Source: Escherichia coli
GTDB lineage: Bacteria > Pseudomonadota > Gammaproteobacteria > Enterobacterales > Enterobacteriaceae
Direction: 5' to 3' (one strand)
Length of the DNA stretch: 64,000 nt
Assembly: GCF_003334355.1 (NCBI RefSeq)
Contig: NZ_QOWP01000003.1
The notes beneath the pieces were generated by a model. It saw nothing but the letters and a program-made list of their open reading frames with translations. It ran no database searches and had not been told where the DNA came from. A program made the translations under genes and the position numbers. Every line of letters starts with the position of its first letter. Positions within the stretch are counted from its first letter, which is position 1. This document shows positions 1-54,553 of this stretch, piece by piece.

Positions 1-140
1 TGGCGGTGGTTGGCGGGCTGTTATGCGTTCTGTTACTGGCAATGGTCGGCTGGAAAAGTCTCTATGCGCTGATCATGCTGGCGGGGTTATGGCTGTTGCT
101 GCCAAAACGAAAAACGCCGGAAAATGGCATAACCACATAA
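1..140 (+). CDS. yjeH: YjeH-like amino-acid exporter, C-terminal fragment (5' end outside window)
   Basis: Frame open from the window edge to TAA at 138-140; translated tail ...VGWKSLYALIMLAGLWLLLPKRKTPENGITT is hydrophobic then basic, as at the end of a membrane transporter; convergent with fxsA as in E. coli. Not in the ORF track because no start lies inside the window. Confidence 0.7.
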   Translation, partial: AVVGGLLCVLLLAMVGWKSLYALIMLAGLWLLLPKRKTPENGITT

Positions 141-155
141 TCCGGCGTTTCGACA

Positions 156-632
156 TTAATCCTGGCGATCGTCTTTATGATCAAGGCGGTCGCGCTCATC
201 ATCCTTTCGCTGGTACTCACCATCAAAAGTATTACCGCCACCGGTCCCGGCGCTAAAACCGCCGCCAGGCATGCGAGAAAAGCGCAAATGCGGCATCAAC
301 TTCACTGTCAGATGCTTTTGCACCGGCGGCAATAAAAGTAGAAGACCGAGGAAGTCGGTAAAAAAGCCCGGTAATAAAAGCAGCAAACCAGCAATGATCA
401 GCGAAACACTTTTAATCATCTCCGCCGCTGGGTTTTCACCCGCCGCCATTTTTTGCTGCATCAGCACGAAATTCTTAAAGCCCTGGTTACGTACCAGTGA
501 CATACCGATAACTGACGTGAATATAACCAGCACGAGGGTCAGCAATACCCCCAATACATGGGCAACCTGAATAAAGATTGAAATCTCAATATAGACATAA
601 AGGAAAATGGCAATAAAAGGTAACCAGCGCAA
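156..632 (-). CDS. fxsA: FxsA, inner-membrane protein (suppressor of F-plasmid exclusion of phage T7)
   Basis: ORF track 158 aa; hydrophobic N-terminal half and charged tail (RKDDERDRLDHKDDRQD); recognised as FxsA; divergent from aspA. Confidence 0.9.
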   Translation of the reverse strand: MRWLPFIAIFLYVYIEISIFIQVAHVLGVLLTLVLVIFTSVIGMSLVRNQGFKNFVLMQQKMAAGENPAAEMIKSVSLIIAGLLLLLPGFFTDFLGLLLLLPPVQKHLTVKLMPHLRFSRMPGGGFSAGTGGGNTFDGEYQRKDDERDRLDHKDDRQD

Positions 633-766
633 AGGTTTCTCCTGTAATAGCAGCCGGTTAACCTCGGCTACCTGAATGGGTTGCGAATCGCGTTTAGCTT
701 ATATTGTGGTCATTAGCAAAATTTCAAGATGTTTGCGCAACTATTTTTGGTAGTAATCCCAAAGCG

Positions 767-781
767 GTGATCTATTTCACA
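767..781. promoter_or_regulatory. Crp/Fnr-family-like site (GTGATCTATTTCACA) in aspA upstream region
   Basis: Matches TGTGA-N6-TCACA well (GTGA-tctatt-TCACA), about 190 nt upstream of aspA ATG; aspA is known to be CRP/FNR controlled. Coordinates approximate. Confidence 0.4.
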
Positions 782-968
782 AATTAATAATTAATGGGTA
801 AAAACCGACACTTAAAGTGATCCAGATTACGGTAGAAATCCTCAAGCAGCATATGATCTCGGGTATTCGGTCGATGCAGGGGATAATCGTCGGTCGAAAA
901 ACATTCGAAACCACATATATTCTGTGTGTTTAAAGCAAATCATTGGCAGCTTGAAAAAGAAGGTTCAC

Positions 969-2405
969 ATGTCAAACAACATTCGTATCGAAGAAGATCT
1001 GTTGGGTACCAGGGAAGTTCCAGCTGATGCCTACTATGGTGTTCACACTCTGAGAGCGATTGAAAACTTCTATATCAGCAACAACAAAATCAGTGATATT
1101 CCTGAATTTGTTCGCGGTATGGTAATGGTTAAAAAAGCCGCAGCTATGGCAAACAAAGAGCTGCAAACCATTCCTAAAAGTGTAGCGAATGCCATCATTG
1201 CCGCATGTGATGAAGTCCTGAACAACGGAAAATGCATGGATCAGTTCCCGGTAGACGTCTACCAGGGCGGCGCAGGTACTTCCGTAAACATGAACACCAA
1301 CGAAGTGCTGGCCAATATCGGTCTGGAACTGATGGGTCACCAAAAAGGTGAATATCAGTACCTGAACCCGAACGACCATGTTAACAAATGTCAGTCCACT
1401 AACGACGCCTACCCGACCGGTTTCCGTATCGCAGTTTACTCTTCCCTGATTAAGCTGGTAGATGCGATTAACCAACTGCGTGAAGGCTTTGAACGTAAAG
1501 CTGTCGAATTCCAGGACATCCTGAAAATGGGTCGTACCCAGCTGCAGGACGCAGTACCGATGACCCTCGGTCAGGAATTCCGCGCTTTCAGCATCCTGCT
1601 GAAAGAAGAAGTGAAAAACATCCAACGTACCGCTGAACTGCTGCTGGAAGTTAACCTTGGTGCAACAGCAATCGGTACTGGTCTGAACACGCCGAAAGAG
1701 TACTCTCCGCTGGCAGTGAAAAAACTGGCTGAAGTTACTGGCTTCCCATGCGTACCGGCTGAAGACCTGATCGAAGCGACCTCTGACTGCGGCGCTTATG
1801 TTATGGTTCACGGCGCGCTGAAACGCCTGGCTGTGAAGATGTCCAAAATCTGTAACGACCTGCGCTTGCTCTCTTCAGGCCCACGTGCCGGCCTGAACGA
1901 GATCAACCTGCCGGAACTGCAGGCGGGCTCTTCCATCATGCCAGCTAAAGTAAACCCGGTTGTTCCGGAAGTGGTTAACCAGGTATGCTTCAAAGTCATC
2001 GGTAACGACACCACTGTTACCATGGCAGCAGAAGCAGGTCAGCTGCAGTTGAACGTTATGGAGCCGGTCATTGGCCAGGCCATGTTCGAATCCGTTCACA
2101 TTCTGACCAACGCTTGCTACAACCTGCTGGAAAAATGCATTAACGGCATCACTGCTAACAAAGAAGTGTGCGAAGGTTACGTTTACAACTCTATCGGTAT
2201 CGTTACTTACCTGAACCCGTTCATCGGTCACCACAACGGTGACATCGTGGGTAAAATCTGTGCCGAAACCGGTAAGAGTGTACGTGAAGTCGTTCTGGAA
2301 CGCGGTCTGTTGACTGAAGCGGAACTTGACGATATTTTCTCCGTACAGAATCTGATGCACCCGGCTTACAAAGCAAAACGCTATACTGATGAAAGCGAAC
2401 AGTAA
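969..2405 (+). CDS. aspA: Aspartate ammonia-lyase (aspartase)
   Basis: ORF track 924..2405; recognised AspA N-terminus [24 protein letters not shown] begins at ATG 969 (codon 16 of the track ORF); 478 aa; fumarase/aspartase family motifs ([10 protein letters not shown]). Confidence 0.96.
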
Positions 2406-2429
2406 TCGTACAGGGTAGTACAAATAAAA

Positions 2430-2460
2430 AAGGCACGTCAGATGACGTGCCTTTTTTCTT
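2430..2460 (+). terminator. Intrinsic terminator after aspA
   Basis: Perfect 9-bp stem GGCACGTCA/TGACGTGCC with 2-nt loop followed by TTTTTTCTT, about 25 nt after aspA stop. Confidence 0.7.
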
Positions 2461-2522
2461 GTGAGCAGTAACTTAAAAATAACAATCTAATATCAACTTG
2501 TTAAAAAACAAGGAAGGCTAAT

Positions 2523-3824
2523 ATGCTAGTTGTAGAACTCATCATAGTTTTGCTGGCGATCTTCTTGGGCGCCAGATTGGGGGGAATAGGTATTGGTTTT
2601 GCAGGCGGATTGGGGGTGCTGGTTCTTGCCGCTATTGGCGTTAAACCCGGTAACATCCCGTTCGATGTCATCTCCATTATCATGGCGGTTATCGCCGCTA
2701 TTTCTGCCATGCAGGTTGCTGGCGGTCTGGACTATCTGGTTCATCAGACAGAAAAGCTGCTGCGCCGTAACCCGAAATACATCACGATCCTCGCACCGAT
2801 CGTGACCTATTTCCTGACTATCTTTGCTGGTACTGGCAACATCTCTCTGGCGACACTGCCAGTTATCGCTGAAGTTGCGAAGGAACAAGGCGTTAAACCT
2901 TGCCGTCCGCTGTCTACTGCAGTGGTATCCGCGCAGATTGCGATCACCGCATCGCCAATCTCAGCGGCAGTGGTTTACATGTCTTCCGTGATGGAAGGTC
3001 ATGGCATCAGCTACCTCCATCTGCTCTCCGTGGTCATCCCGTCCACCCTGCTGGCGGTTCTGGTGATGTCCTTCCTGGTCACTATGCTGTTCAACTCCAA
3101 ACTCTCTGACGATCCGATTTATCGCAAGCGTCTGGAAGAGGGCCTGGTTGAACTGCGCGGTGAAAAGCAGATTGAAATCAAATCCGGTGCAAAAACGTCC
3201 GTCTGGCTGTTCCTGCTGGGCGTAGTTGGCGTGGTTATCTATGCAATCATCAACAGCCCAAGCATGGGTCTGGTTGAAAAACCGCTGATGAACACCACCA
3301 ACGCAATCCTGATCATCATGCTCAGCGTTGCAACTCTGACCACCGTTATCTGTAAAGTCGATACCGACAACATCCTCAACTCCAGCACCTTCAAAGCAGG
3401 TATGAGCGCCTGTATTTGTATCCTGGGTGTTGCGTGGCTGGGCGATACTTTCGTTTCCAACAACATCGACTGGATCAAAGATACCGCTGGTGAAGTGATT
3501 CAGGGTCATCCGTGGCTGCTGGCCGTCATCTTCTTCTTTGCTTCTGCTCTGCTGTACTCTCAGGCTGCAACCGCAAAAGCACTGATGCCGATGGCTCTGG
3601 CACTGAACGTTTCACCGCTGACCGCTGTTGCTTCTTTCGCTGCGGTGTCTGGTCTGTTCATTCTGCCGACCTACCCGACGCTGGTTGCTGCGGTACAGAT
3701 GGATGACACGGGTACTACCCGTATCGGTAAATTCGTCTTCAACCATCCGTTCTTCATCCCGGGTACTCTGGGTGTTGCCCTGGCCGTTTGCTTCGGCTTC
3801 GTGCTGGGTAGCTTCATGCTGTAA
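2523..3824 (+). CDS. dcuA: Anaerobic C4-dicarboxylate transporter DcuA
   Basis: ORF track 433 aa, polytopic membrane protein; recognised as DcuA; paralogous to the dcuB ORF at 20557 (shared [11 protein letters not shown](I/V)S motifs); immediately downstream of aspA. Confidence 0.95.
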   Translation: MLVVELIIVLLAIFLGARLGGIGIGFAGGLGVLVLAAIGVKPGNIPFDVISIIMAVIAAISAMQVAGGLDYLVHQTEKLLRRNPKYITILAPIVTYFLTIFAGTGNISLATLPVIAEVAKEQGVKPCRPLSTAVVSAQIAITASPISAAVVYMSSVMEGHGISYLHLLSVVIPSTLLAVLVMSFLVTMLFNSKLSDDPIYRKRLEEGLVELRGEKQIEIKSGAKTSVWLFLLGVVGVVIYAIINSPSMGLVEKPLMNTTNAILIIMLSVATLTTVICKVDTDNILNSSTFKAGMSACICILGVAWLGDTFVSNNIDWIKDTAGEVIQGHPWLLAVIFFFASALLYSQAATAKALMPMALALNVSPLTAVASFAAVSGLFILPTYPTLVAAVQMDDTGTTRIGKFVFNHPFFIPGTLGVALAVCFGFVLGSFML

Positions 3825-3833
3825 TGATCAATC

Positions 3834-3860
3834 GCGGGGCGTTCACGCCCCGCTTTCTTT
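3834..3860 (+). terminator. Intrinsic terminator after dcuA
   Basis: GC stem GCGGGGCG/CGCCCCGC with TTCA loop, followed by TTTCTTT. Confidence 0.65.
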
Positions 3861-3939
3861 CCCGCCGACTAACATCCTTCCCCCGTCCGTTGTATAGTGA
3901 CCTCTCTCTTGCGGTTCCATCTGTTCTTGCGAGGTGTTT

Positions 3940-4278
3940 ATGCTTGATGAAAAAAGTTCGAATACCGCGTCTGTCGTGGTGCTATGTACGGCACCAGATG
4001 AAGCGACAGCCCAGGATTTAGCCGCCAAAGTGCTGGCGGAAAAACTGGCGGCCTGCGCGACCTTGATCCCCGGCGCTACCTCTCTCTATTACTGGGAAGG
4101 TAAGCTGGAGCAAGAATACGAAGTGCAGATGATTTTAAAAACTACCGTATCTCACCAGCAGGCACTGCTGGAATGCCTGAAGTCTCATCATCCATATCAA
4201 ACCCCGGAACTTCTGGTTTTACCTGTTACACACGGAGACACAGATTACCTCTCATGGCTCAACGCATCTTTACGCTGA
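3940..4278 (+). CDS. cutA: Divalent-cation tolerance protein CutA
   Basis: ORF track 3934..4278 (GTG); recognised CutA sequence [21 protein letters not shown] starts at ATG 3940; 112 aa; 3' end overlaps dsbD start. Confidence 0.92.
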
Positions 4279-5951
4279 TCCTGCTACTTTGCAGCACTTC
4301 CGTTTTTGCCGGATTATTCGACGCGCCGGGACGTTCACAATTTGTCCCCGCGGATCAAGCCTTTGCTTTTGATTTTCAGCAAAACCAACATGACCTTAAT
4401 CTGACCTGGCAGATCAAAGACGGTTACTACCTCTACCGTAAACAGATCCGCATTACGCCGGAACACGCGAAAATTGCCGACGTGCAGCTGCCGCAAGGCG
4501 TCTGGCATGAAGATGAGTTTTACGGCAAAAGCGAGATTTACCGCGATCGGCTGACGCTTCCCGTCACCATCAACCAGGCGAGTGCGGGAGCGACGTTAAC
4601 TGTCACCTACCAGGGCTGTGCTGATGCCGGTTTCTGTTATCCGCCAGAAACCAAAACCGTTCCGTTAAGCGAAGTGGTCGCCAACAACGCAGCGCCACAG
4701 CCTGTGTCTGTTCCGCAGCAAGAGCAGCCCACCGCGCAATTGCCCTTTTCCGCACTCTGGGCGTTGTTGATCGGTATTGGTATCGCCTTTACGCCATGCG
4801 TGCTGCCAATGTACCCACTGATTTCTGGCATCGTGCTGGGTGGTAAACAGCGGCTCTCCACTGCCAGAGCATTGTTGCTGACCTTTATTTATGTGCAGGG
4901 GATGGCGCTGACCTACACGGCGCTGGGTCTGGTGGTTGCCGCCGCAGGGTTACAGTTCCAGGCGGCGCTACAGCACCCATACGTGCTCATTGGCCTCGCC
5001 ATCGTCTTTACCTTGCTGGCGATGTCAATGTTTGGCTTGTTTACCCTGCAACTCCCCTCTTCGCTGCAAACACGTCTCACGTTGATGAGCAATCGCCAAC
5101 AGGGCGGCTCACCTGGCGGTGTGTTTGTTATGGGGGCGATTGCCGGACTGATCTGTTCACCATGCACCACCGCACCGCTTAGCGCGATTCTGCTGTATAT
5201 CGCCCAAAGCGGGAACATGTGGCTGGGCGGCGGCACGCTTTATCTCTATGCGTTGGGCATGGGCCTGCCGCTGATGCTAATTACCGTCTTTGGTAACCGC
5301 TTGCTGCCGAAAAGCGGCCCGTGGATGGAACAAGTCAAAACCGCGTTTGGTTTTGTGATCCTCGCACTGCCGGTCTTCCTGCTGGAGCGAGTGATTGGTG
5401 ATGTATGGGGATTACGCTTGTGGTCGGCGCTGGGTGTCGCATTCTTTGGCTGGGCCTTTATCACCAGCCTACAGGCTAAACGCGGCTGGATGCGTATTGT
5501 GCAAATTATTCTGCTGGCAGCGGCATTGGTTAGCGTGCGCCCACTTCAGGATTGGGCATTTGGTGCGACGCATACCGCGCAAACTCAGACGCATCTCAAC
5601 TTTACACAAATCAAAACGGTAGATGAGTTAAATCAGGCGCTCGTTGAAGCCAAAGGCAAACCGGTGATGTTAGATCTTTATGCCGACTGGTGCGTCGCCT
5701 GTAAAGAGTTTGAGAAATACACCTTCAGCGACCCGCAGGTGCAAAAAGCGTTAGCAGACACGGTCTTACTTCAGGCCAACGTCACGGCCAACGACGCACA
5801 AGATGTGGCGCTGTTAAAGCATCTTAATGTCCTTGGCCTACCGACAATTCTCTTTTTTGACGGACAAGGCCAGGAGCATCCACAAGCACGCGTCACGGGC
5901 TTTATGGATGCTGAAACCTTCAGCGCACATTTGCGCGATCGCCAACCGTGA
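4254..5951 (+). CDS. dsbD: Thiol:disulfide interchange protein DsbD (DipZ)
   Basis: ORF track 4173..5951; recognised DsbD N-terminus [19 protein letters not shown] (signal peptide) at ATG 4254; 565 aa; periplasmic domain, 8 TM core, C-terminal thioredoxin-like domain with CVAC motif. Confidence 0.95.
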
Positions 5952-5987: not shown

Positions 5988-6563
5988 GTGCAACGTGAAG
6001 ATGTACTGGGAGAAGCCCTGAAATTATTAGAATTACAAGGGATTGCCAACACCACGCTGGAGATGGTTGCTGAACGTGTGGATTATCCACTGGACGAGCT
6101 ACGCCGCTTCTGGCCAGACAAAGAGGCAATCCTCTACGATGCGCTGCGTTATCTTAGCCAACAGATAGATGTCTGGCGTCGTCAGCTGATGCTGGACGAA
6201 ACGCAAACCGCCGAACAAAAGCTGCTGGCACGTTATCAGGCGTTATCGGAGTGCGTTAAAAACAACCGCTATCCGGGCTGTCTATTTATCGCTGCCTGTA
6301 CGTTTTATCCCGATCCTGGCCACCCTATTCATCAACTGGCCGATCAGCAAAAAAGCGCGGCCTACGATTTCACCCACGAACTGTTAACCACACTGGAAGT
6401 TGACGATCCGGCGATGGTAGCAAAGCAGATGGAACTGGTGCTGGAAGGCTGTTTAAGCCGAATGCTGGTGAATCGTAGCCAGGCGGATGTCGACACTGCA
6501 CATCGGCTGGCGGAAGATATCCTGCGCTTCGCCCGCTGCCGCCAGGGTGGTGCATTGACCTGA
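5988..6563 (+). CDS. yjdC: TetR-family transcriptional regulator YjdC
   Basis: ORF track 5964..6563; GTG at 5988 is preceded by GGAGGA and gives the 191-aa protein [31 protein letters not shown] (N-terminal HTH); GTG 5964 is the alternative start. Confidence 0.85.
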
Positions 6564-6669
6564 CAGAAACACAGAAAAGAAGCGATTTGCCGCAATCTTA
6601 AGCAGTTGAATCGCTTTTACTGAAATTAGGTTGACGAGATGTGCAGATTACGGTTTAATGCGCCCCGTT

Positions 6670-6745
6670 GCCCGGATAGCTCAGTCGGTAGAGCAGGGGA
6701 TTGAAAATCCCCGTGTCCTTGGTTCGATTCCGAGTCCGGGCACCA
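6670..6745 (+). tRNA. pheU: tRNA-Phe (GAA anticodon)
   Basis: 76-nt sequence GCCCGGATAGCTCAGTCGGTAGAGCAGGGGATTGAAAATCCCCGTGTCCTTGGTTCGATTCCGAGTCCGGGCACCA: acceptor stem, D-loop, anticodon loop with GAA, T-loop GGTTCGATTCC and encoded CCA. Confidence 0.95.
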
Positions 6746-6754
6746 AATTCATAT

Positions 6755-6784
6755 AAACGGACCTCCACGGAGGTCCGTTTTTCG
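6755..6784 (+). terminator. Intrinsic terminator after tRNA-Phe
   Basis: AAACGGACCTCC-ACGG-AGGTCCGTTTTTCG: perfect 10-bp stem followed by T-run, 10 nt after the tRNA 3' end. Confidence 0.8.
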
Positions 6785-7361
6785 TTTCAGGACGCCACGA
6801 TTTAAGCGTTCTGCCTCCAAATCAATTCTACCGAACTCAACCAGATTCTCCCCACATCACCAGCAATTTGCGGGCATATCCCAATTCGGGAAAATTTGTT
6901 CCTGAGCTATAGCACTAACTGACGTGAAATGTCGTGCGGCCCCGTGATGCTGTTGAACGTCAAATGACGTCATCAGGAGCGTAACGCATCCATAAAGCAC
7001 AACACCGGTCTGAACGGCGACTGATGAGATTTTCTGAATGAGAACAAAGAGAAATGTATCAGTTCGCTTGCTCATGCAAAGACTAACAATCCATTAAAAT
7101 AGTAAGTGCTCCGGACAATTTTCCATGGATTATTTTCTGAACATTTTTCTTTGGCAAAGATGATGAATTTTGATGGTAAGGAATATTACTTCTGGTTCTC
7201 AGTAAAATCCTTTCGTAATACTATGTAATCAAGAAGTTTATGGCTGGTAAAAATAACGTCTTGCATTCACCAATAATATGTAAATAAACCCATCTATAGA
7301 TGGTAAAAATAGGTTGTGGCAATTATCATTGCATCATTCCCTTTTCGAATGAGTTTCTATT

Positions 7362-8900
7362 ATGCAACAACCTGTAGTTCGCGTTGGCGAATGGCTTGTT
7401 ACTCCGTCCATAAACCAAATTAGCCGCAATGGGCGTCAACTTACCCTTGAGCCGAGATTAATCGATCTTCTGGTTTTCTTTGCTCAACACAGTGGCGAAG
7501 TACTTAGCAGGGATGAACTTATCGATAATGTCTGGAAGAGAAGTATTGTCACCAATCACGTTGTGACGCAGAGTATCTCAGAACTACGTAAGTCATTAAA
7601 AGATAATGATGAAGATAGTCCTGTCTATATCGCTACTGTACCAAAGCGCGGCTATAAATTAATGGTGCCGGTTATCTGGTACAGCGAAGAAGAGGGAGAG
7701 AAAATAATGCTATCTTCGCCTCCCCCTATACCAGAGGCGGTTCCTGCCACAGATTCTCCCTCCCACAGTCTTAACATTCAAAACACCGCAACGCCACCTG
7801 AACAATCCCCAGTTAAAAGCAAACGATTCACTACCTTTTGGGTATGGTTTTTTTTCCTGTTGTCGTTAGGTATCTGTGTAGCACTGGTAGCGTTTTCAAG
7901 TCTTGATACACGTCTTCCTATGAGCAAATCGCGTATTTTGCTCAATCCACGCGATATTGACATTAATATGGTAAATAAAAGTTGTAACAGCTGGAGTTCC
8001 CCGTATCAGCTCTCTTACGCGATAGGCGTGGGTGATTTGGTGGCGACATCACTTAACACCTTCTCCACCTTTATGGTGCATGACAAAATCAACTACAACA
8101 TTGATGAACCGAGCAGTTCCGGTAAAACATTATCTATTGCGTTTGTTAATCAGCGCCAATACCGTGCTCAACAATGCTTTATGTCGATAAAATTGGTAGA
8201 CAATGCAGATGGTTCAACCATGCTGGATAAACGTTATGTCATCACTAACGGTAATCAGCTGGCGATTCAAAATGATTTACTGGAGAGTTTATCAAAAGCG
8301 TTAAACCAACCGTGGCCACAACGAATGCAGGAGACGCTCCAGAAAATTTTGCCGCATCGTGGTGCGTTATTAACTAATTTTTATCAGGCACATGATTATT
8401 TACTGCATGGCGATGATAAATCATTGAACCGTGCCAGTGAATTATTAGGTGAGATTGTTCAATCATCCCCAGAATTTACCTACGCGAGAGCAGAAAAAGC
8501 ATTAGTTGATATCGTGCGCCATTCTCAACATCCTTTAGATGAAAAACAATTAGCAGCACTGAACACAGAAATAGATAACATTGTTACACTGCCGGAATTG
8601 AACAACCTGTCCATTATATATCAAATAAAAGCGGTCAGTGCTCTGGTAAAAGGTAAAACAGATGAGTCTTACCAGGCGATAAATACTGGCATTGATCTTG
8701 AAATGTCCTGGCTAAATTATGTGTTGCTTGGCAAGGTTTATGAAATGAAGGGGATGAACCGGGAAGCAGCTGATGCATATCTCACCGCCTTTAATTTACG
8801 CCCAGGGGCAAACACCCTTTACTGGATTGAAAATGGTATATTCCAGACTTCTGTTCCTTATGTTGTACCTTATCTCGACAAATTTCTTGCTTCAGAATAA
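7362..8900 (+). CDS. cadC: CadC, ToxR-like membrane-integrated transcriptional activator of cadBA
   Basis: ORF track 512 aa; N-terminal winged-helix domain, Pro/Ser-rich linker, single TM segment (FWVWFFFLLSLGICVALVAF), periplasmic sensor domain; recognised as CadC; directly upstream of cadBA. Confidence 0.95.
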   Translation: MQQPVVRVGEWLVTPSINQISRNGRQLTLEPRLIDLLVFFAQHSGEVLSRDELIDNVWKRSIVTNHVVTQSISELRKSLKDNDEDSPVYIATVPKRGYKLMVPVIWYSEEEGEKIMLSSPPPIPEAVPATDSPSHSLNIQNTATPPEQSPVKSKRFTTFWVWFFFLLSLGICVALVAFSSLDTRLPMSKSRILLNPRDIDINMVNKSCNSWSSPYQLSYAIGVGDLVATSLNTFSTFMVHDKINYNIDEPSSSGKTLSIAFVNQRQYRAQQCFMSIKLVDNADGSTMLDKRYVITNGNQLAIQNDLLESLSKALNQPWPQRMQETLQKILPHRGALLTNFYQAHDYLLHGDDKSLNRASELLGEIVQSSPEFTYARAEKALVDIVRHSQHPLDEKQLAALNTEIDNIVTLPELNNLSIIYQIKAVSALVKGKTDESYQAINTGIDLEMSWLNYVLLGKVYEMKGMNREAADAYLTAFNLRPGANTLYWIENGIFQTSVPYVVPYLDKFLASE

Positions 8901-9042
8901 GTAACTCCGGGTTGATTTATGCTCGGAAATATTTGTTGTTGAGTTTTTGTATGTTCCTGTTGGTATAATATGTTGCGGCAATTTATTTGCCGCATAATTT
9001 TTATTACATAAATTTAACCAGAGAATGTCACGCAATCCATTG

Positions 9043-9080
9043 TAAACATTAAATGTTTATCTTTTCATGATATCAACTTG
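9043..9080. promoter_or_regulatory. Pcad control region elements: palindrome TAAACATT-A-AATGTTTA and shared 13-mer TGATATCAACTTG
   Basis: Perfect 8-1-8 palindrome at about 9043-9059 and the 13-mer at 9068-9080, 185-220 nt upstream of cadB ATG in an AT-rich region; CadC is known to bind upstream of cadB but I cannot place the footprints exactly from memory. Confidence 0.4.
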
Positions 9081-9264
9081 CGATCCTGATGTGTTAATAA
9101 AAAACCTCAAGTTCTCACTTACAGAAACTTTTGTGTTATTTCACCTAATCTTTAGGATTAATCCTTTTTTCGTGAGTAATCTTATCGCCAGTTTGGTCTG
9201 GTCAGGAAATAGTTATACATCATGACCCGGACTCCAAATTCAAAAATGAAATTAGGAGAAGAGC

Positions 9265-50136: not shown

Positions 50137-50891
50137 ATCAACCGTTACTTTCGGTCAATAACCTGACCCACCTTTACGCGCCGGGCAAAGGCTTTAGCGA
50201 TGTCTCTTTTGATTTATGGCCGGGGGAAGTGCTGGGCATTGTCGGGGAATCCGGCTCCGGGAAGACCACGCTGCTGAAGTCGATCTCCGCGCGCCTGACG
50301 CCGCAGCAGGGGGAAATTCACTACGAGAACCGTTCGCTGTATGCAATGAGCGAGGCCGACCGCCGTCGCCTGCTGCGTACCGAATGGGGCGTGGTGCATC
50401 AGCATCCACTCGACGGCCTGCGCCGCCAGGTGTCGGCAGGCGGCAATATCGGCGAGCGGCTGATGGCGACCGGGGCACGTCATTACGGCGATATTCGTGC
50501 CACCGCGCAGAAGTGGCTGGAAGAGGTGGAGATTCCCGCCAACCGGATCGACGACCTGCCGACCACCTTTTCCGGCGGTATGCAGCAGCGTTTGCAGATT
50601 GCCCGCAACCTGGTGACGCATCCGAAGCTGGTGTTTATGGATGAACCGACCGGCGGGCTGGATGTGTCGGTGCAGGCCCGCCTGCTCGACCTGCTGCGCG
50701 GCCTGGTGGTGGAGCTGAACCTCGCGGTGGTGATTGTCACCCATGATTTAGGCGTCGCCCGCCTGCTGGCGGACCGTTTGCTGGTGATGAAGCAGGGGCA
50801 AGTGGTGGAGAGTGGGTTAACCGACCGCGTGCTCGACGACCCGCATCATCCGTATACACAGCTGCTGGTGTCATCGGTTTTGCAGAATTGA
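50133..50891 (+). CDS. phnK: C-P lyase accessory ATP-binding protein PhnK
   Basis: ORF track 50103..50891; recognised Phn[16 protein letters not shown] at ATG 50133 (ATGA overlap with phnJ); 252 aa; Walker [10 protein letters not shown]. Confidence 0.93.
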
Positions 50892-50894
50892 GCC

Positions 50895-50985
<91 letters not shown>

Positions 50986-51001
50986 AACCACGAGGCGAAA
51001 A

Positions 51002-51682
51002 ATGATTAACGTACAAAACGTCAGTAAAACCTTCATCCTGCACCAGCAAAACGGCGTGCGCCTGCCCGTCCTCAATCGCGCCTCGCTCACCGTCAACGCG
51101 GGCGAATGCGTGGTGCTCCACGGCCATTCCGGCAGCGGCAAATCAACTCTGCTACGCTCGCTGTACGCCAACTATCTACCCGACGAAGGTCAAATCCAGA
51201 TCAAACACGGTGACGAGTGGGTAGACCTGGTCACCGCGCCAGCGCGCAAAGTGGTGGAAATCCGCAAAACCACCGTCGGCTGGGTGAGCCAGTTTCTGCG
51301 CGTCATCCCGCGTATCTCAGCACTGGAAGTGGTGATGCAGCCGCTGCTCGATACCGGCGTTCCGCGTGAAGCCTGCGCCGCTAAAGCCGCGCGTCTTCTC
51401 ACCCGCCTGAACGTGCCGGAACGCCTGTGGCACCTGGCACCATCGACATTTTCCGGTGGCGAACAGCAGCGCGTCAACATCGCCCGCGGCTTTATCGTCG
51501 ACTACCCCATTCTGCTGCTTGACGAACCTACCGCCTCGCTGGACGCCAAAAACAGCGCCGCGGTGGTGGAACTGATTCGCGAAGCCAAAACCCGTGGCGC
51601 AGCCATCGTAGGCATCTTCCATGACGAAGCTGTACGTAATGACGTCGCCGACCGCCTGCACCCAATGGGAGCCTCTTCATGA
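51002..51682 (+). CDS. phnL: C-P lyase accessory ATP-binding protein PhnL
   Basis: ORF track 50888..51682 starts inside the REP; recognised Phn[17 protein letters not shown] at ATG 51002; 226 aa; Walker [10 protein letters not shown]. Confidence 0.93.
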
Positions 51683-52815
51683 TTATCAATAACGTTAAGC
51701 TGGTGCTGGAAAACGAGGTGGTAAGCGGTTCGCTGGAGGTGCAGAACGGCGAAATCCGCGCCTTTGCCGAAAGCCAGAGCCGCCTGCCGGAGGCGATGGA
51801 CGGCGAAGGCGGCTGGCTGCTGCCGGGGCTGATTGAGCTGCATACCGATAATCTGGATAAATTCTTCACCCCGCGCCCGAAAGTTGACTGGCCTGCCCAC
51901 TCGGCGATGAGCAGCCACGACGCGCTGATGGTGGCGAGCGGCATCACCACCGTACTGGATGCCGTGGCAATTGGCGACGTGCGCGACGGCGGCGATCGGC
52001 TGGAGAATCTGGAGAAGATGATCAACGCCATCGAAGAGACGCAGAAACGCGGCGTCAACCGCGCCGAGCACCGTCTGCATCTGCGCTGCGAACTGCCGCA
52101 TCACACCACGCTGCCGCTGTTTGAAAAACTGGTGCAGCGCGAGCCGGTGACGCTGGTGTCGCTGATGGACCACTCGCCGGGCCAGCGCCAGTTCGCCAAC
52201 CGCGAGAAGTATCGCGAATATTATCAGGGCAAATACTCCCTCACTGATGCGCAGATGCAGCAGTACGAAGAAGAGCAACTGGCGCTCGCCGCACGCTGGT
52301 CGCAGCCGAATCGCGAATCCATCGCCGCCCTGTGCCGCGCGCGAAAAATTGCGCTTGCCAGCCACGATGACGCCACCCACGCCCACGTTGCTGAATCTCA
52401 CCAGCTTGGCAGCGTGATCGCCGAATTTCCCACCACGTTCGAAGCGGCGGAAGCCTCGCGCAAGCATGGCATGAACGTGCTGATGGGCGCGCCGAATATT
52501 GTGCGCGGCGGCTCGCACTCCGGCAACGTGGCGGCCAGTGAACTGGCGCAGCTTGGCCTGCTGGATATCCTCTCTTCCGACTACTACCCCGCCAGCCTGC
52601 TCGATGCGGCATTTCGCGTCGCCGATGACGAGAGCAACCGCTTTACGCTGCCGCAGGCGGTGAAGCTGGTGACTAAAAATCCAGCGCAGGCGCTTAATCT
52701 CCAGGATCGCGGGGTGATTGGCGAGGGCAAACGCGCCGACCTGGTGCTGGCGCATCGCAAGGACAATCATATTCATATCGACCACGTCTGGCGTCAGGGT
52801 AAAAGGGTGTTCTGA
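51679..52815 (+). CDS. phnM: PhnM, amidohydrolase-family subunit (RPnTP diphosphatase)
   Basis: ORF track 378 aa; metal-dependent hydrolase fold; ATGA overlap with phnL. Confidence 0.93.
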
Positions 52816-53372
52816 TGATGGGAAAACTGATTTGGTTAATGGGGCCGTCCGGCTCCGGGAAAGACAGCCTGCTGGCGGAACTCCGCCTGCGGGAACAAAC
52901 TCAGTTACTGGTGGCGCATCGCTACATCACGCGCGATGCCAGCGCCGGAAGTGAAAACCATATCGCCCTGAGCGAGCAGGAGTTTTTTACCCGCGCGGGG
53001 CAAAATCTGTTGGCCTTAAGCTGGCACGCTAACAGTCTGTATTATGGCGTCGGCGTCGAGATTGATCTCTGGCTGCACGCCGGATTCGACGTGCTGGTCA
53101 ACGGCTCACGCGCCCATCTGCCGCAGGCGCGGGCGCGCTATCAATCGGCGCTGCTGCCCGTCTGTTTACAGGTTTCGCCGGAGATCCTCCGCCAGCGCCT
53201 GGAAAACCGTGGCCGTGAAAACGCCAGTGAAATTAACGCCCGCCTGGCGCGCGCCGCCCGCTATACTCCACAGGATTGCCATACGCTCAACAATGACGGC
53301 AGCCTGCGCCAGTCGGTCGACACGCTGCTGACGCTGATCCATCAGAAGGAGAAACACCATGCCTGCTTGTGA
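52815..53372 (+). CDS. phnN: Ribose 1,5-bisphosphate phosphokinase PhnN
   Basis: ORF track 185 aa; P-loop GPSGSGKDS; start overlaps phnM stop (TGATG). Confidence 0.93.
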
Positions 53373-53793
53373 GCTTCGCCCGGCCACGCAGTACGACACC
53401 GACGCGGTTTACGCGCTGATTTGTGAGCTAAAACAGGCGGAGTTTGACCACCACGCGTTTCGCGTGGGTTTTAACGCCAATCTGCGCGACCCAAACATGC
53501 GCTACCATCTGGCGCTGCTTGATGGCGAAGTTGTCGGCATGATCGGCCTGCATTTGCAGTTTCATCTGCATCATGTCAACTGGATCGGCGAAATTCAGGA
53601 GTTGGTGGTAATGCCGCAGGCGCGCGGTCTGAACGTCGGCAGTAAGTTACTGGCGTGGGCAGAAGAAGAAGCCCGCCAGGCCGGGGCCGAAATGACCGAA
53701 CTTTCGACCAACGTGAAGCGCCACGACGCGCACCGTTTCTATCTGCGCGAAGGCTACGAGCAGAGCCACTTCCGCTTCACCAAGGCGCTGTAA
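53359..53793 (+). CDS. phnO: Aminoalkylphosphonate N-acetyltransferase PhnO (GNAT)
   Basis: ORF track 144 aa; GNAT fold; 14-nt overlap with phnN. Confidence 0.92.
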
Positions 53794-53794
53794 C

Positions 53795-54553
53795 ATGAGC
53801 CTGACCCTCACGCTCACCGGCACCGGCGGCGCACAGGGCGTTCCGGCATGGGGCTGCGAGTGTGCGGCCTGCGCCAGAGCGCGGCGCTCGCCGCAGTATC
53901 GCCGCCAACCGTGCAGCGGCGTAGTGAAGTTTAACGACGCAATCACCCTGATCGACGCCGGGCTGCACGATCTCGCCGATCGCTGGTCGCCCGGATCGTT
54001 CCAGCAGTTTTTGCTGACGCATTATCATATGGATCACGTCCAGGGGCTGTTTCCGCTGCGCTGGGGCGTTGGCGATCCGATCCCGGTTTACGGCCCGCCG
54101 GATGAACAGGGCTGCGACGATCTGTTTAAACATCCGGGCCTGCTTGATTTCAGCCACACGGTGGAACCGTTTGTGGTGTTTGATTTGCAGGGGTTACAGG
54201 TCACGCCCCTGCCGCTCAACCACTCAAAACTGACCTTCGGTTATCTGCTGGAAACGGCACACAGCCGGGTGGCGTGGCTGTCTGACACCGCAGGCTTGCC
54301 GGAAAAAACGCTGAAATTTTTACGCAATAATCAGCCGCAGGTAATGGTGATGGATTGCAGTCACCCGCCGCGCGCGGATGCACCGCGTAATCACTGTGAT
54401 TTAAATACCGTGCTTGCGCTGAATCAGGTTATCCGCTCGCCACGGGTGATTCTGACCCATATCAGCCACCAGTTTGATGCGTGGCTGATGGAAAACGCAC
54501 TACCGTCAGGGTTTGAGGTGGGGTTTGATGGGATGGAGATTGGGGTGGCGTGA
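53795..54553 (+). CDS. phnP: Phosphoribosyl 1,2-cyclic phosphate phosphodiesterase PhnP (metallo-beta-lactamase fold)
   Basis: ORF track 252 aa; HxHxDH motif ([11 protein letters not shown]); last gene of the phn cluster. Confidence 0.93.

Follow-up and report, generated by a model that had tools for sequence, protein, structure and literature searches.

The spacer between pheU and cadC in the Escherichia coli DNA analysed here, a 64-kb stretch (64,000 nucleotides) referred to as the window, is with a probability of roughly 0.9 a cargo-free yet previously used integration site that holds the fossil of an integrase, yjdQ. At least positions 6746-7158, about two thirds of what had been called a non-coding tract, derive from the left end of an old island according to their blastn homology. 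According to the initial annotation the pheU site appears unoccupied, which is apt in the sense of being free of cargo but not in the sense of never having been used. The yjdQ finding as such is ordinary, as this locus is already known and annotated, and what is added here is small, namely the N-terminal codons (6909-6941), the leader with its terminator (6746-6908), the decayed terminator of the integrase (7103-7158) and the age of the remnant.

According to open reading frames and a tRNA scan, the gene order in the window is cutA-dsbD-dicD(yjdC)-pheU-cadC-cadB-cadA, and the individual features are compiled in Table 1. K-12 MG1655 is 100% identical over window positions 6564-7361, with an equal yjdC(dicD)-pheU-cadC distance. 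The query used for the survey of complete E. coli genomes finds a match in all 5,426 of them, partly owing to the tRNA sequence shared with pheV. The initial annotation had read the locus as a tRNA-Phe gene followed by its terminator, with no convincing gene before cadC, and both statements stand. The spacer measures 616 bp and its single open reading frame of more than 60 aa, a 72-aa frame on the minus strand (6857-7075), is antisense to the fossil; this frame was rejected as a gene, being intact only in E. coli and Escherichia sp. E1V33 and broken in three of four sister Escherichia species. An Rfam search of positions 6000-9400 at a permissive E-value returned the tRNA alone plus a meaningless 16.9-bit match, and thus no RNA family in the spacer.

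Table 1. Positions of the features between pheU and cadC in the window, with the evidence for each.
Feature	Position	Strand	Basis
pheU, tRNA-Phe(GAA), attB for islands	6670-6745	+	ARAGORN; Rfam tRNA model, 68.3 bits; equals K-12 b4134
att core, 3'-terminal 21-23 nt of pheU, duplicated as attR in occupied strains	6723-6745	+	occupied-strain match to the window restarts at 6723-6725
Intrinsic terminator of pheU, island type	6755-6780	+	terminator scan: 11 pairs (6 G-C) plus T run
Fossil integrase leader, attL-proximal island DNA	6746-6908	+	blastn against the 98E11 and AR_0118 pheU islands
Fossil integrase codons 1-11, IALTDVKCRAA, start ATG changed to ATA	6909-6941	+	tblastn, blastn, blastp
Fossil integrase codons about 358-421, yjdQ (b4654)	6943-7102	+	K-12 and PGAP pseudogene; tblastn; blastn
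3' flank of fossil integrase, decayed terminator hairpin at about 7104-7129	7103-7158	+	blastn alignment with 98E11 and AR_0118 continues past the stop to 7158
AT-rich stretch found only in E. coli and cryptic Escherichia clades	7159-7289	+	single copy; no homologue upstream of E. albertii cadC
Candidate cadC proximal promoter and 5' UTR; candidate -10 element TATCAT at 7324-7329	7290-7361	+	conservation only
cadC, first intact gene 3' of pheU	7362-8900	+	ORF of 512 aa; annotated CadC in identical sequence

The integrity of the attachment site agrees with the earlier description, as neither island cargo nor damage to attB at the 3' end of pheU is seen. A second copy of the tRNA 3' end was sought with a 23-mer, a 16-mer and a 30-mer on both strands of the whole window, and nothing above chance was found with any of the three. 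With up to three mismatches the 23-mer matches only itself across the 64 kb, and with up to seven mismatches it yields one chance-level match at 42778, where 0.75 are expected per strand, such that the reported lack of a direct repeat is confirmed.

In the neighbouring dicD-pheU interval, a DUF1176-family gene of about 674 aa is located in Escherichia sp. E1V33, E. whittamii (2179-4191 and 2165-4177 of the respective flank extracts) and Citrobacter rodentium (10644-12668 of its extract). It is missing from E. coli, where the dicD-pheU gap comprises 106 nt (6564-6669), and from 'E. coli' SCPM-O-B-8794.

The initial annotation had also stated that no integrase follows the tRNA, while conceding that inspection by eye might miss a short remnant. 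The caveat was well placed, since a fragment is present at 6909-6941 and 6943-7102, supported by tblastn, blastn and blastp, and an integrase fragment is what had been named there as the sign of a decayed island. The K-12 pseudogene yjdQ (b4654), the same locus as the window fossil, is annotated at 4362191-4362353, corresponding exactly to window positions 6943-7105, and covers the C-terminal piece only. In identical sequence, PGAP labels positions 6943-7102 as 'tyrosine-type recombinase/integrase; frameshifted; incomplete; missing N-terminus', and the same integrase-pseudogene label appears in most genomes listed. In EcoGene/EcoCyc, yjdQ is recorded as a P4-like integrase remnant; the name 'yjdQ' did not occur in a full-text literature search.

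Three types of alignment delineate the remnant. In tblastn, the 414-aa integrase of the enterotoxigenic strain ETEC M9682-C1 aligns by its segment RDAVERQM...ERRLM to 6943-7026 (E 7e-5) and by its extreme N-terminus to 6909-6941, where IALTDVKCRAA is paired with MALTDVKVRNA. In blastn against the intact 421-aa integrase locus of 98E11 and AR_0118, three blocks are obtained in the order of the intact locus. The first comprises the tRNA and 157 nt of leader at 88-89% identity with a 12-nt gap (E 6e-80 and 7e-81), the first 114 nt of the leader being 94-96% identical to live islands; the second covers the start of the integrase gene (E 6e-4 and 0.005), where the live gene has ATG and the window ATA; and the third extends over the last approximately 63 codons and the 3' flank up to 7158 (E 5e-27 and 3e-29). 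In blastp, a frame-corrected peptide matches residues 358-420 of the 421-aa integrase at 59% identity (E 5e-21) and residues 1-12 with 8/12 identities (E 0.006), E-values which are not independent, as the peptide was built from the alignment, unlike the DNA alignments, which are. The 11-codon N-terminal block is short and on its own weakly significant, and its assignment appears credible in view of the right order of the blocks and of the ATG that is kept in sister species. No NCBIfam model matched the frame-corrected peptide, which is too short.

The fossil begins 163 nt after pheU on the plus strand and the intact genes 197 and 179 nt after it. The P4-type (CP4-57/IntA-like) integrases of the pheU and pheV islands, such as the LEE and papGII islands, are homologous to the fossil and occupy the same position and orientation relative to the tRNA; the 421-aa integrase is also found after pheV in other genomes. 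As this intact 421-aa relative is composed of Arm-DNA-bind_3, Phage_int_M and Phage_integrase domains, the live relative of the fossil is a P4-type integrase. The DNA of the C-terminal fossil piece is 81-82% identical to the live integrase genes and therefore represents an old relative rather than a recent copy.

Unlike the P4-type integrases, the fossil is non-functional. Between codon 11 and codon 358 about 1,035 bp are deleted, such that about 83% of the gene is gone, and the HGFR sequence of the HxxR motif falls within this 1-kb deletion. Three frame-breaking indels, a +1 nt insertion, a 16-nt deletion and a 14-nt deletion, interrupt the C-terminal piece, and in E. coli the 16-nt deletion takes out the codon for the catalytic tyrosine (AAYIH motif). 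Stop codons occur in all frames and no intact open reading frame with arm-binding, central and catalytic domains exists. The fossil is thus unable to make a recombinase, because it lacks a start codon, the arm-binding and central domains, the catalytic tyrosine and almost all of the catalytic domain, and carries the three indels. The native stop codon of the integrase is retained at 7100-7102, and the hairpin behind it has decayed. An integrase remnant in the AR_0118 pheU island (5398-5583) is followed by the intact hairpin AAGCACTCCGGGCAATCTGCCCGGAGTGCTT, the 5' half of which is homologous to 7104-7122, and the integrase terminator hairpin is better kept in Escherichia sp. E1V33 than in E. 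coli.

The terminator behind pheU points in the same direction. The hairpin at 6755-6780 is identical in the islands with the 421-aa integrase at pheU, and the islands with the 414-aa integrase possess a homologous terminator with a compensatory C-G to G-C change. The query segment with the terminator also matches at pheV in other genomes, but the unoccupied pheV of K-12 is followed by an unrelated terminator. Judged from these comparisons, the pheU terminator is island-supplied DNA and not native, and, as the hairpin is shared with islands and unlike the one at unoccupied pheV, the DNA directly 3' of the att core is to be assigned to the lineage of the fossil island.

With respect to present-day occupancy, the designation of pheU as an integration hotspot is justified. 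The contiguous arrangement dicD-pheU-fossil of the window is found in 3,750 of the 5,426 complete E. coli genomes (69%), and in about 31% something else lies directly after pheU. A 421-aa integrase directly follows dicD-pheU in 1,312/5,426 genomes (24%), a 414-aa-type integrase is located at pheU in 31/5,426 (0.6%), and other occupants or rearrangements account for the remaining approximately 6%. The fossil and the cadC upstream region are nevertheless kept in at least 96% of the 5,426 genomes. Comparison with island-carrying strains, which the initial annotation had proposed, shows that the match to the window restarts at 6723-6725 and that the fossil is situated just downstream of attR. In ETEC M9682-C1 and Escherichia sp. 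MOD1-EC7003 the attR copies are shorter (about 20 and 16 nt), each with a 1-nt deletion. Published surveys use yjdC-pheU-cadC as their standard location for LEE and papGII islands inserted at pheU (PMC7686366; bioRxiv 10.1101/549998), and one integrase is common to pheU and pheV pathogenicity islands (PMC7686366).

The occupants of pheU are diverse. Strain NRG 857C carries a SPI-7-type integrative and conjugative element (dnaB-PI, ParA/ParB, TraD, topoisomerase III) that duplicates 48 nt of the tRNA and not 23. The 414-aa-integrase island of ETEC M9682-C1 encodes defence functions, namely Kiwa kwaA/kwaB, dcm-vsr and a TIR-domain protein with a TPR partner, as well as a MobQ relaxase and an H-NS family gene. 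The pheU island of AR_0118 exceeds 49 kb and contains a grp (glycyl-radical propanediol) microcompartment operon; its integrase remnant with the intact terminator hairpin is a second C-terminal P4-type fossil, 5 kb inside the island, which suggests tandem accumulation of islands at pheU. In strain PK8217, IS1 is inserted in the pheU-cadC spacer. In C. rodentium, a P4-type integrase that shares 54% identity with the 421-aa type of E. coli is located after pheU (13016-14255 of the extract); it was found as two tblastn segments and may be frameshifted.

These observations show that an island with a P4-type integrase once resided at the 3' end of pheU, in an ancestor common to E. coli and cryptic Escherichia clades, and that its left end survives as the tRNA terminator, the leader, codons 1-11, codons 358-421 approximately and the decayed integrase terminator. 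With an undamaged tRNA and 23-nt att core, the site still serves as attB. Incoming islands restore the tRNA when they recombine at its 3' end and bring their own terminator, leaving the fossil on the far side, downstream of their attR. In occupied strains, copies of the homologous leader of about 160 nt (about 88% identity, 12-nt gap) would flank the island as direct repeats, through which RecA-dependent loss of the island could proceed. Neither the attR nor the cargo of the old island was identified in the 64-kb window.

The age of the fossil was assessed with a CadC-based scan of one genome per species. The order pheU-fossil-cadC is present in E. whittamii, Escherichia sp. E1V33 and 'E. coli' SCPM-O-B-8794, and Escherichia sp. 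MOD1-EC7003 shows the occupied version, attR-fossil-cadC. On the comparative sequence evidence, the fossil is ancient, older than the speciation of E. coli, because the same internal deletion junction is found in these four other Escherichia species-level genomes (identical in 4/4). Later decay differs by lineage, as the 16 nt lost in E. coli are still present in three of the four, SCPM-O-B-8794 retains extra leader sequence and the start codon of the fossil is still ATG in sister species. The identity of the fossil to E. coli amounts to 76-93%, compared to 78-85% for 4-fold degenerate sites in the cadC and dicD genes of these genomes; being slightly above that of 4-fold degenerate sites, it appears to give no clear signal of selection or function. 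Recent formation of the fossil in this strain is excluded, as at least 96% of E. coli genomes carry it. That the leader was recently 'refreshed' from live islands was considered and rejected, since the identity of its first 114 nt to live islands (94-96%) is about the same as to the fossils of sister species (92-95%).

E. albertii was tried as a guide to the right end of the old island and rejected, as a different P4-like element without an att copy and without homology to 7103-7289 is present there. In strain NBRC 107761, the region upstream of cadC (extract 1-4263) contains this P4-like element with a toprim/primase open reading frame and a 612-aa helicase-like open reading frame, and about 72 nt separate its end from the cadC ATG. 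The 4.2 kb in front of cadC in this strain contain neither tRNA-Phe nor an att copy nor the yjdQ fossil.

Between the fossil and cadC, the sequence is AT-rich, as had been noted at the outset. In 200-nt windows between 7000 and 7399 the GC content is 0.315-0.365, compared to approximately 0.51-0.55 upstream, and the tract (31-37% GC) starts at about 7080, in the 3' end region of the fossil. The stretch 7159-7289 is present as a single copy in 5,262/5,426 E. coli genomes, has no paralogue in islands or elsewhere among the 5,426 genomes and is 82-96% identical in the four sister Escherichia genomes. Among the complete E. coli genomes, 164/5,426 are wholly without 7150-7295, and one further genome, strain 23070, keeps only 7257-7295; these genomes may represent strains with deletions in the cad region.

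Downstream of this stretch, the sequence immediately preceding cadC is conserved more widely. Positions 7290-7361 are 90% identical in E. albertii, which shares with E. coli only the last approximately 72 nt before cadC, and 94-96% identical in other Escherichia, and upstream of cadC in Klebsiella, Raoultella, Enterobacter, Buttiauxella, Serratia and Yersinia only the TATCAT hexamer and the leader after it are conserved, the hexamer being preceded by TG in most of these genera. TATCAT at 7324-7329 is therefore a candidate -10 element of cadC, and the core promoter is tentatively placed within the last approximately 72 nt (7290-7361), because sharing with E. albertii, and in part with other genera, is limited to this segment. 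A generic sigma-70 scan of positions 6500-7500 returned no promoter on the plus strand and one site on the minus strand, no more than in shuffled sequences.

The proposal in the initial annotation that the AT-rich tract belongs to a silenced cadC promoter region agrees with published data, in which H-NS showed preferential binding to a fragment of the cadC promoter and an hns mutation raised the cadC mRNA level 4.62-fold (Krin et al. 2010, PMC2984483). Part of this binding is probably due to the AT-rich DNA upstream of the cadC core promoter and to the fossil tail within it. Genomic SELEX of minor sigma factors reported a 'constitutive promoter' peak in the table for the heat-shock sigma factor (PMC5493296), a peak which is placed to the cadC-pheU spacer as a whole (window about 6700-7360).

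Among alternative readings, the one that retains most weight, although it is doubtful, is that cadCBA, possibly together with dtpC and lysU, represents cargo that survives from the fossil island, or an insertion into that island. Equally speculative is the wider version in which a lysine-dependent acid-resistance module, with cadCBA as the island payload, was acquired or relocated via the pheU hotspot in the Escherichia ancestor, once Salmonella and Citrobacter had diverged. If so, cadC would now be expressed from a promoter just downstream of island debris. The fossil indeed immediately precedes cadC and is oriented as the left end of an island would require, and cadCBA adjoins tRNA-Phe only in Escherichia; within 5 kb upstream of cadC no tRNA-Phe, dicD or dsbD was found in about 37 non-Escherichia species, a comparison limited to species with the full 5-kb cadC upstream flank. 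Moreover, groESL-aspA-dcuA-cutA-dsbD-dicD-pheU is conserved in Salmonella, C. rodentium and Kosakonia with a different lineage-specific region after pheU, and cadC and its flanks have 40-41% GC, with the GC content staying below 50% out to approximately 21 kb. On the other hand, there is no attR anywhere in the 64-kb window and no definable right boundary, cadB and cadA are only mildly AT-rich (46-48% GC), and the stretch 7159-7289 between the fossil and cadC matches no island. Any variable region would be expected to adjoin a hotspot, and a chromosomal rearrangement or an independent insertion beside the fossil fits the data equally well.

Less probable still is the co-option of the fossil as regulatory DNA, whether by nucleating H-NS, by providing curved DNA or by supplying a promoter that keeps cadC expression very low, with retention of the fossil for this reason. 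Its persistence in at least 96% of E. coli genomes and four sister species would be accounted for, and the onset of AT-richness at the fossil 3' end, the binding of H-NS to the cadC promoter fragment with 4.6-fold derepression in the hns mutant (PMC2984483) and the minor-sigma SELEX peak in the cadC-pheU spacer (PMC5493296) are compatible with it. Nevertheless, the divergence of the fossil is near that of 4-fold degenerate sites and its indels differ between lineages, E. albertii is without this DNA upstream of -72 and yet has an intact cadCBA with a proximal region 90% identical, conservation in other genera is confined to about 70-130 nt in front of cadC, and the spacer contains no Rfam RNA family.

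That pheU is a virgin attB with nothing but native intergenic and cadC promoter DNA behind it, with integrase similarity arising by chance, would be in line with the intact tRNA and the lack of an intact integrase, cargo or a second att copy, but is refuted for practical purposes by the tblastn, blastn and blastp matches to intact pheU integrases, with three homology blocks in the order of the intact locus and E-values down to 3e-29 and 7e-81, by the agreement of curated (K-12) and automatic (PGAP) pseudogene annotations and by a post-pheU terminator which matches those of islands and not the native one of pheV.

The preferred reading, a cargo-free site with an integrase fossil, bears on how pheU is described in the typing of islands. 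The site resembles the empty pheU attB of island-typing schemes, defined by the yjdC-cadC junction, in its intact tRNA, its lack of cargo and its K-12 spacing, a combination that such surveys record as 'unoccupied' (PMC7686366; bioRxiv 10.1101/549998). 'Empty' is, however, an operational label, as the reference empty site itself holds island-derived DNA; the 'empty' pheU reference site used in island typing of enteropathogenic, enterohaemorrhagic and uropathogenic E. coli (EPEC, EHEC and UPEC) is a scarred site, which corrects a common shorthand. The fossil also explains the integrase pseudogene that PGAP places beside cadC in nearly every E. coli genome, and the direct-repeat homology of about 160 nt around pheU islands may matter for island loss by homologous recombination. 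The current understanding of tRNA-linked islands and of Cad regulation is unchanged. Elsewhere in the window, a block of about 10 kb (about 45000-54500) with many short co-oriented open reading frames has a GC content of 59-63%, well over that of the rest.
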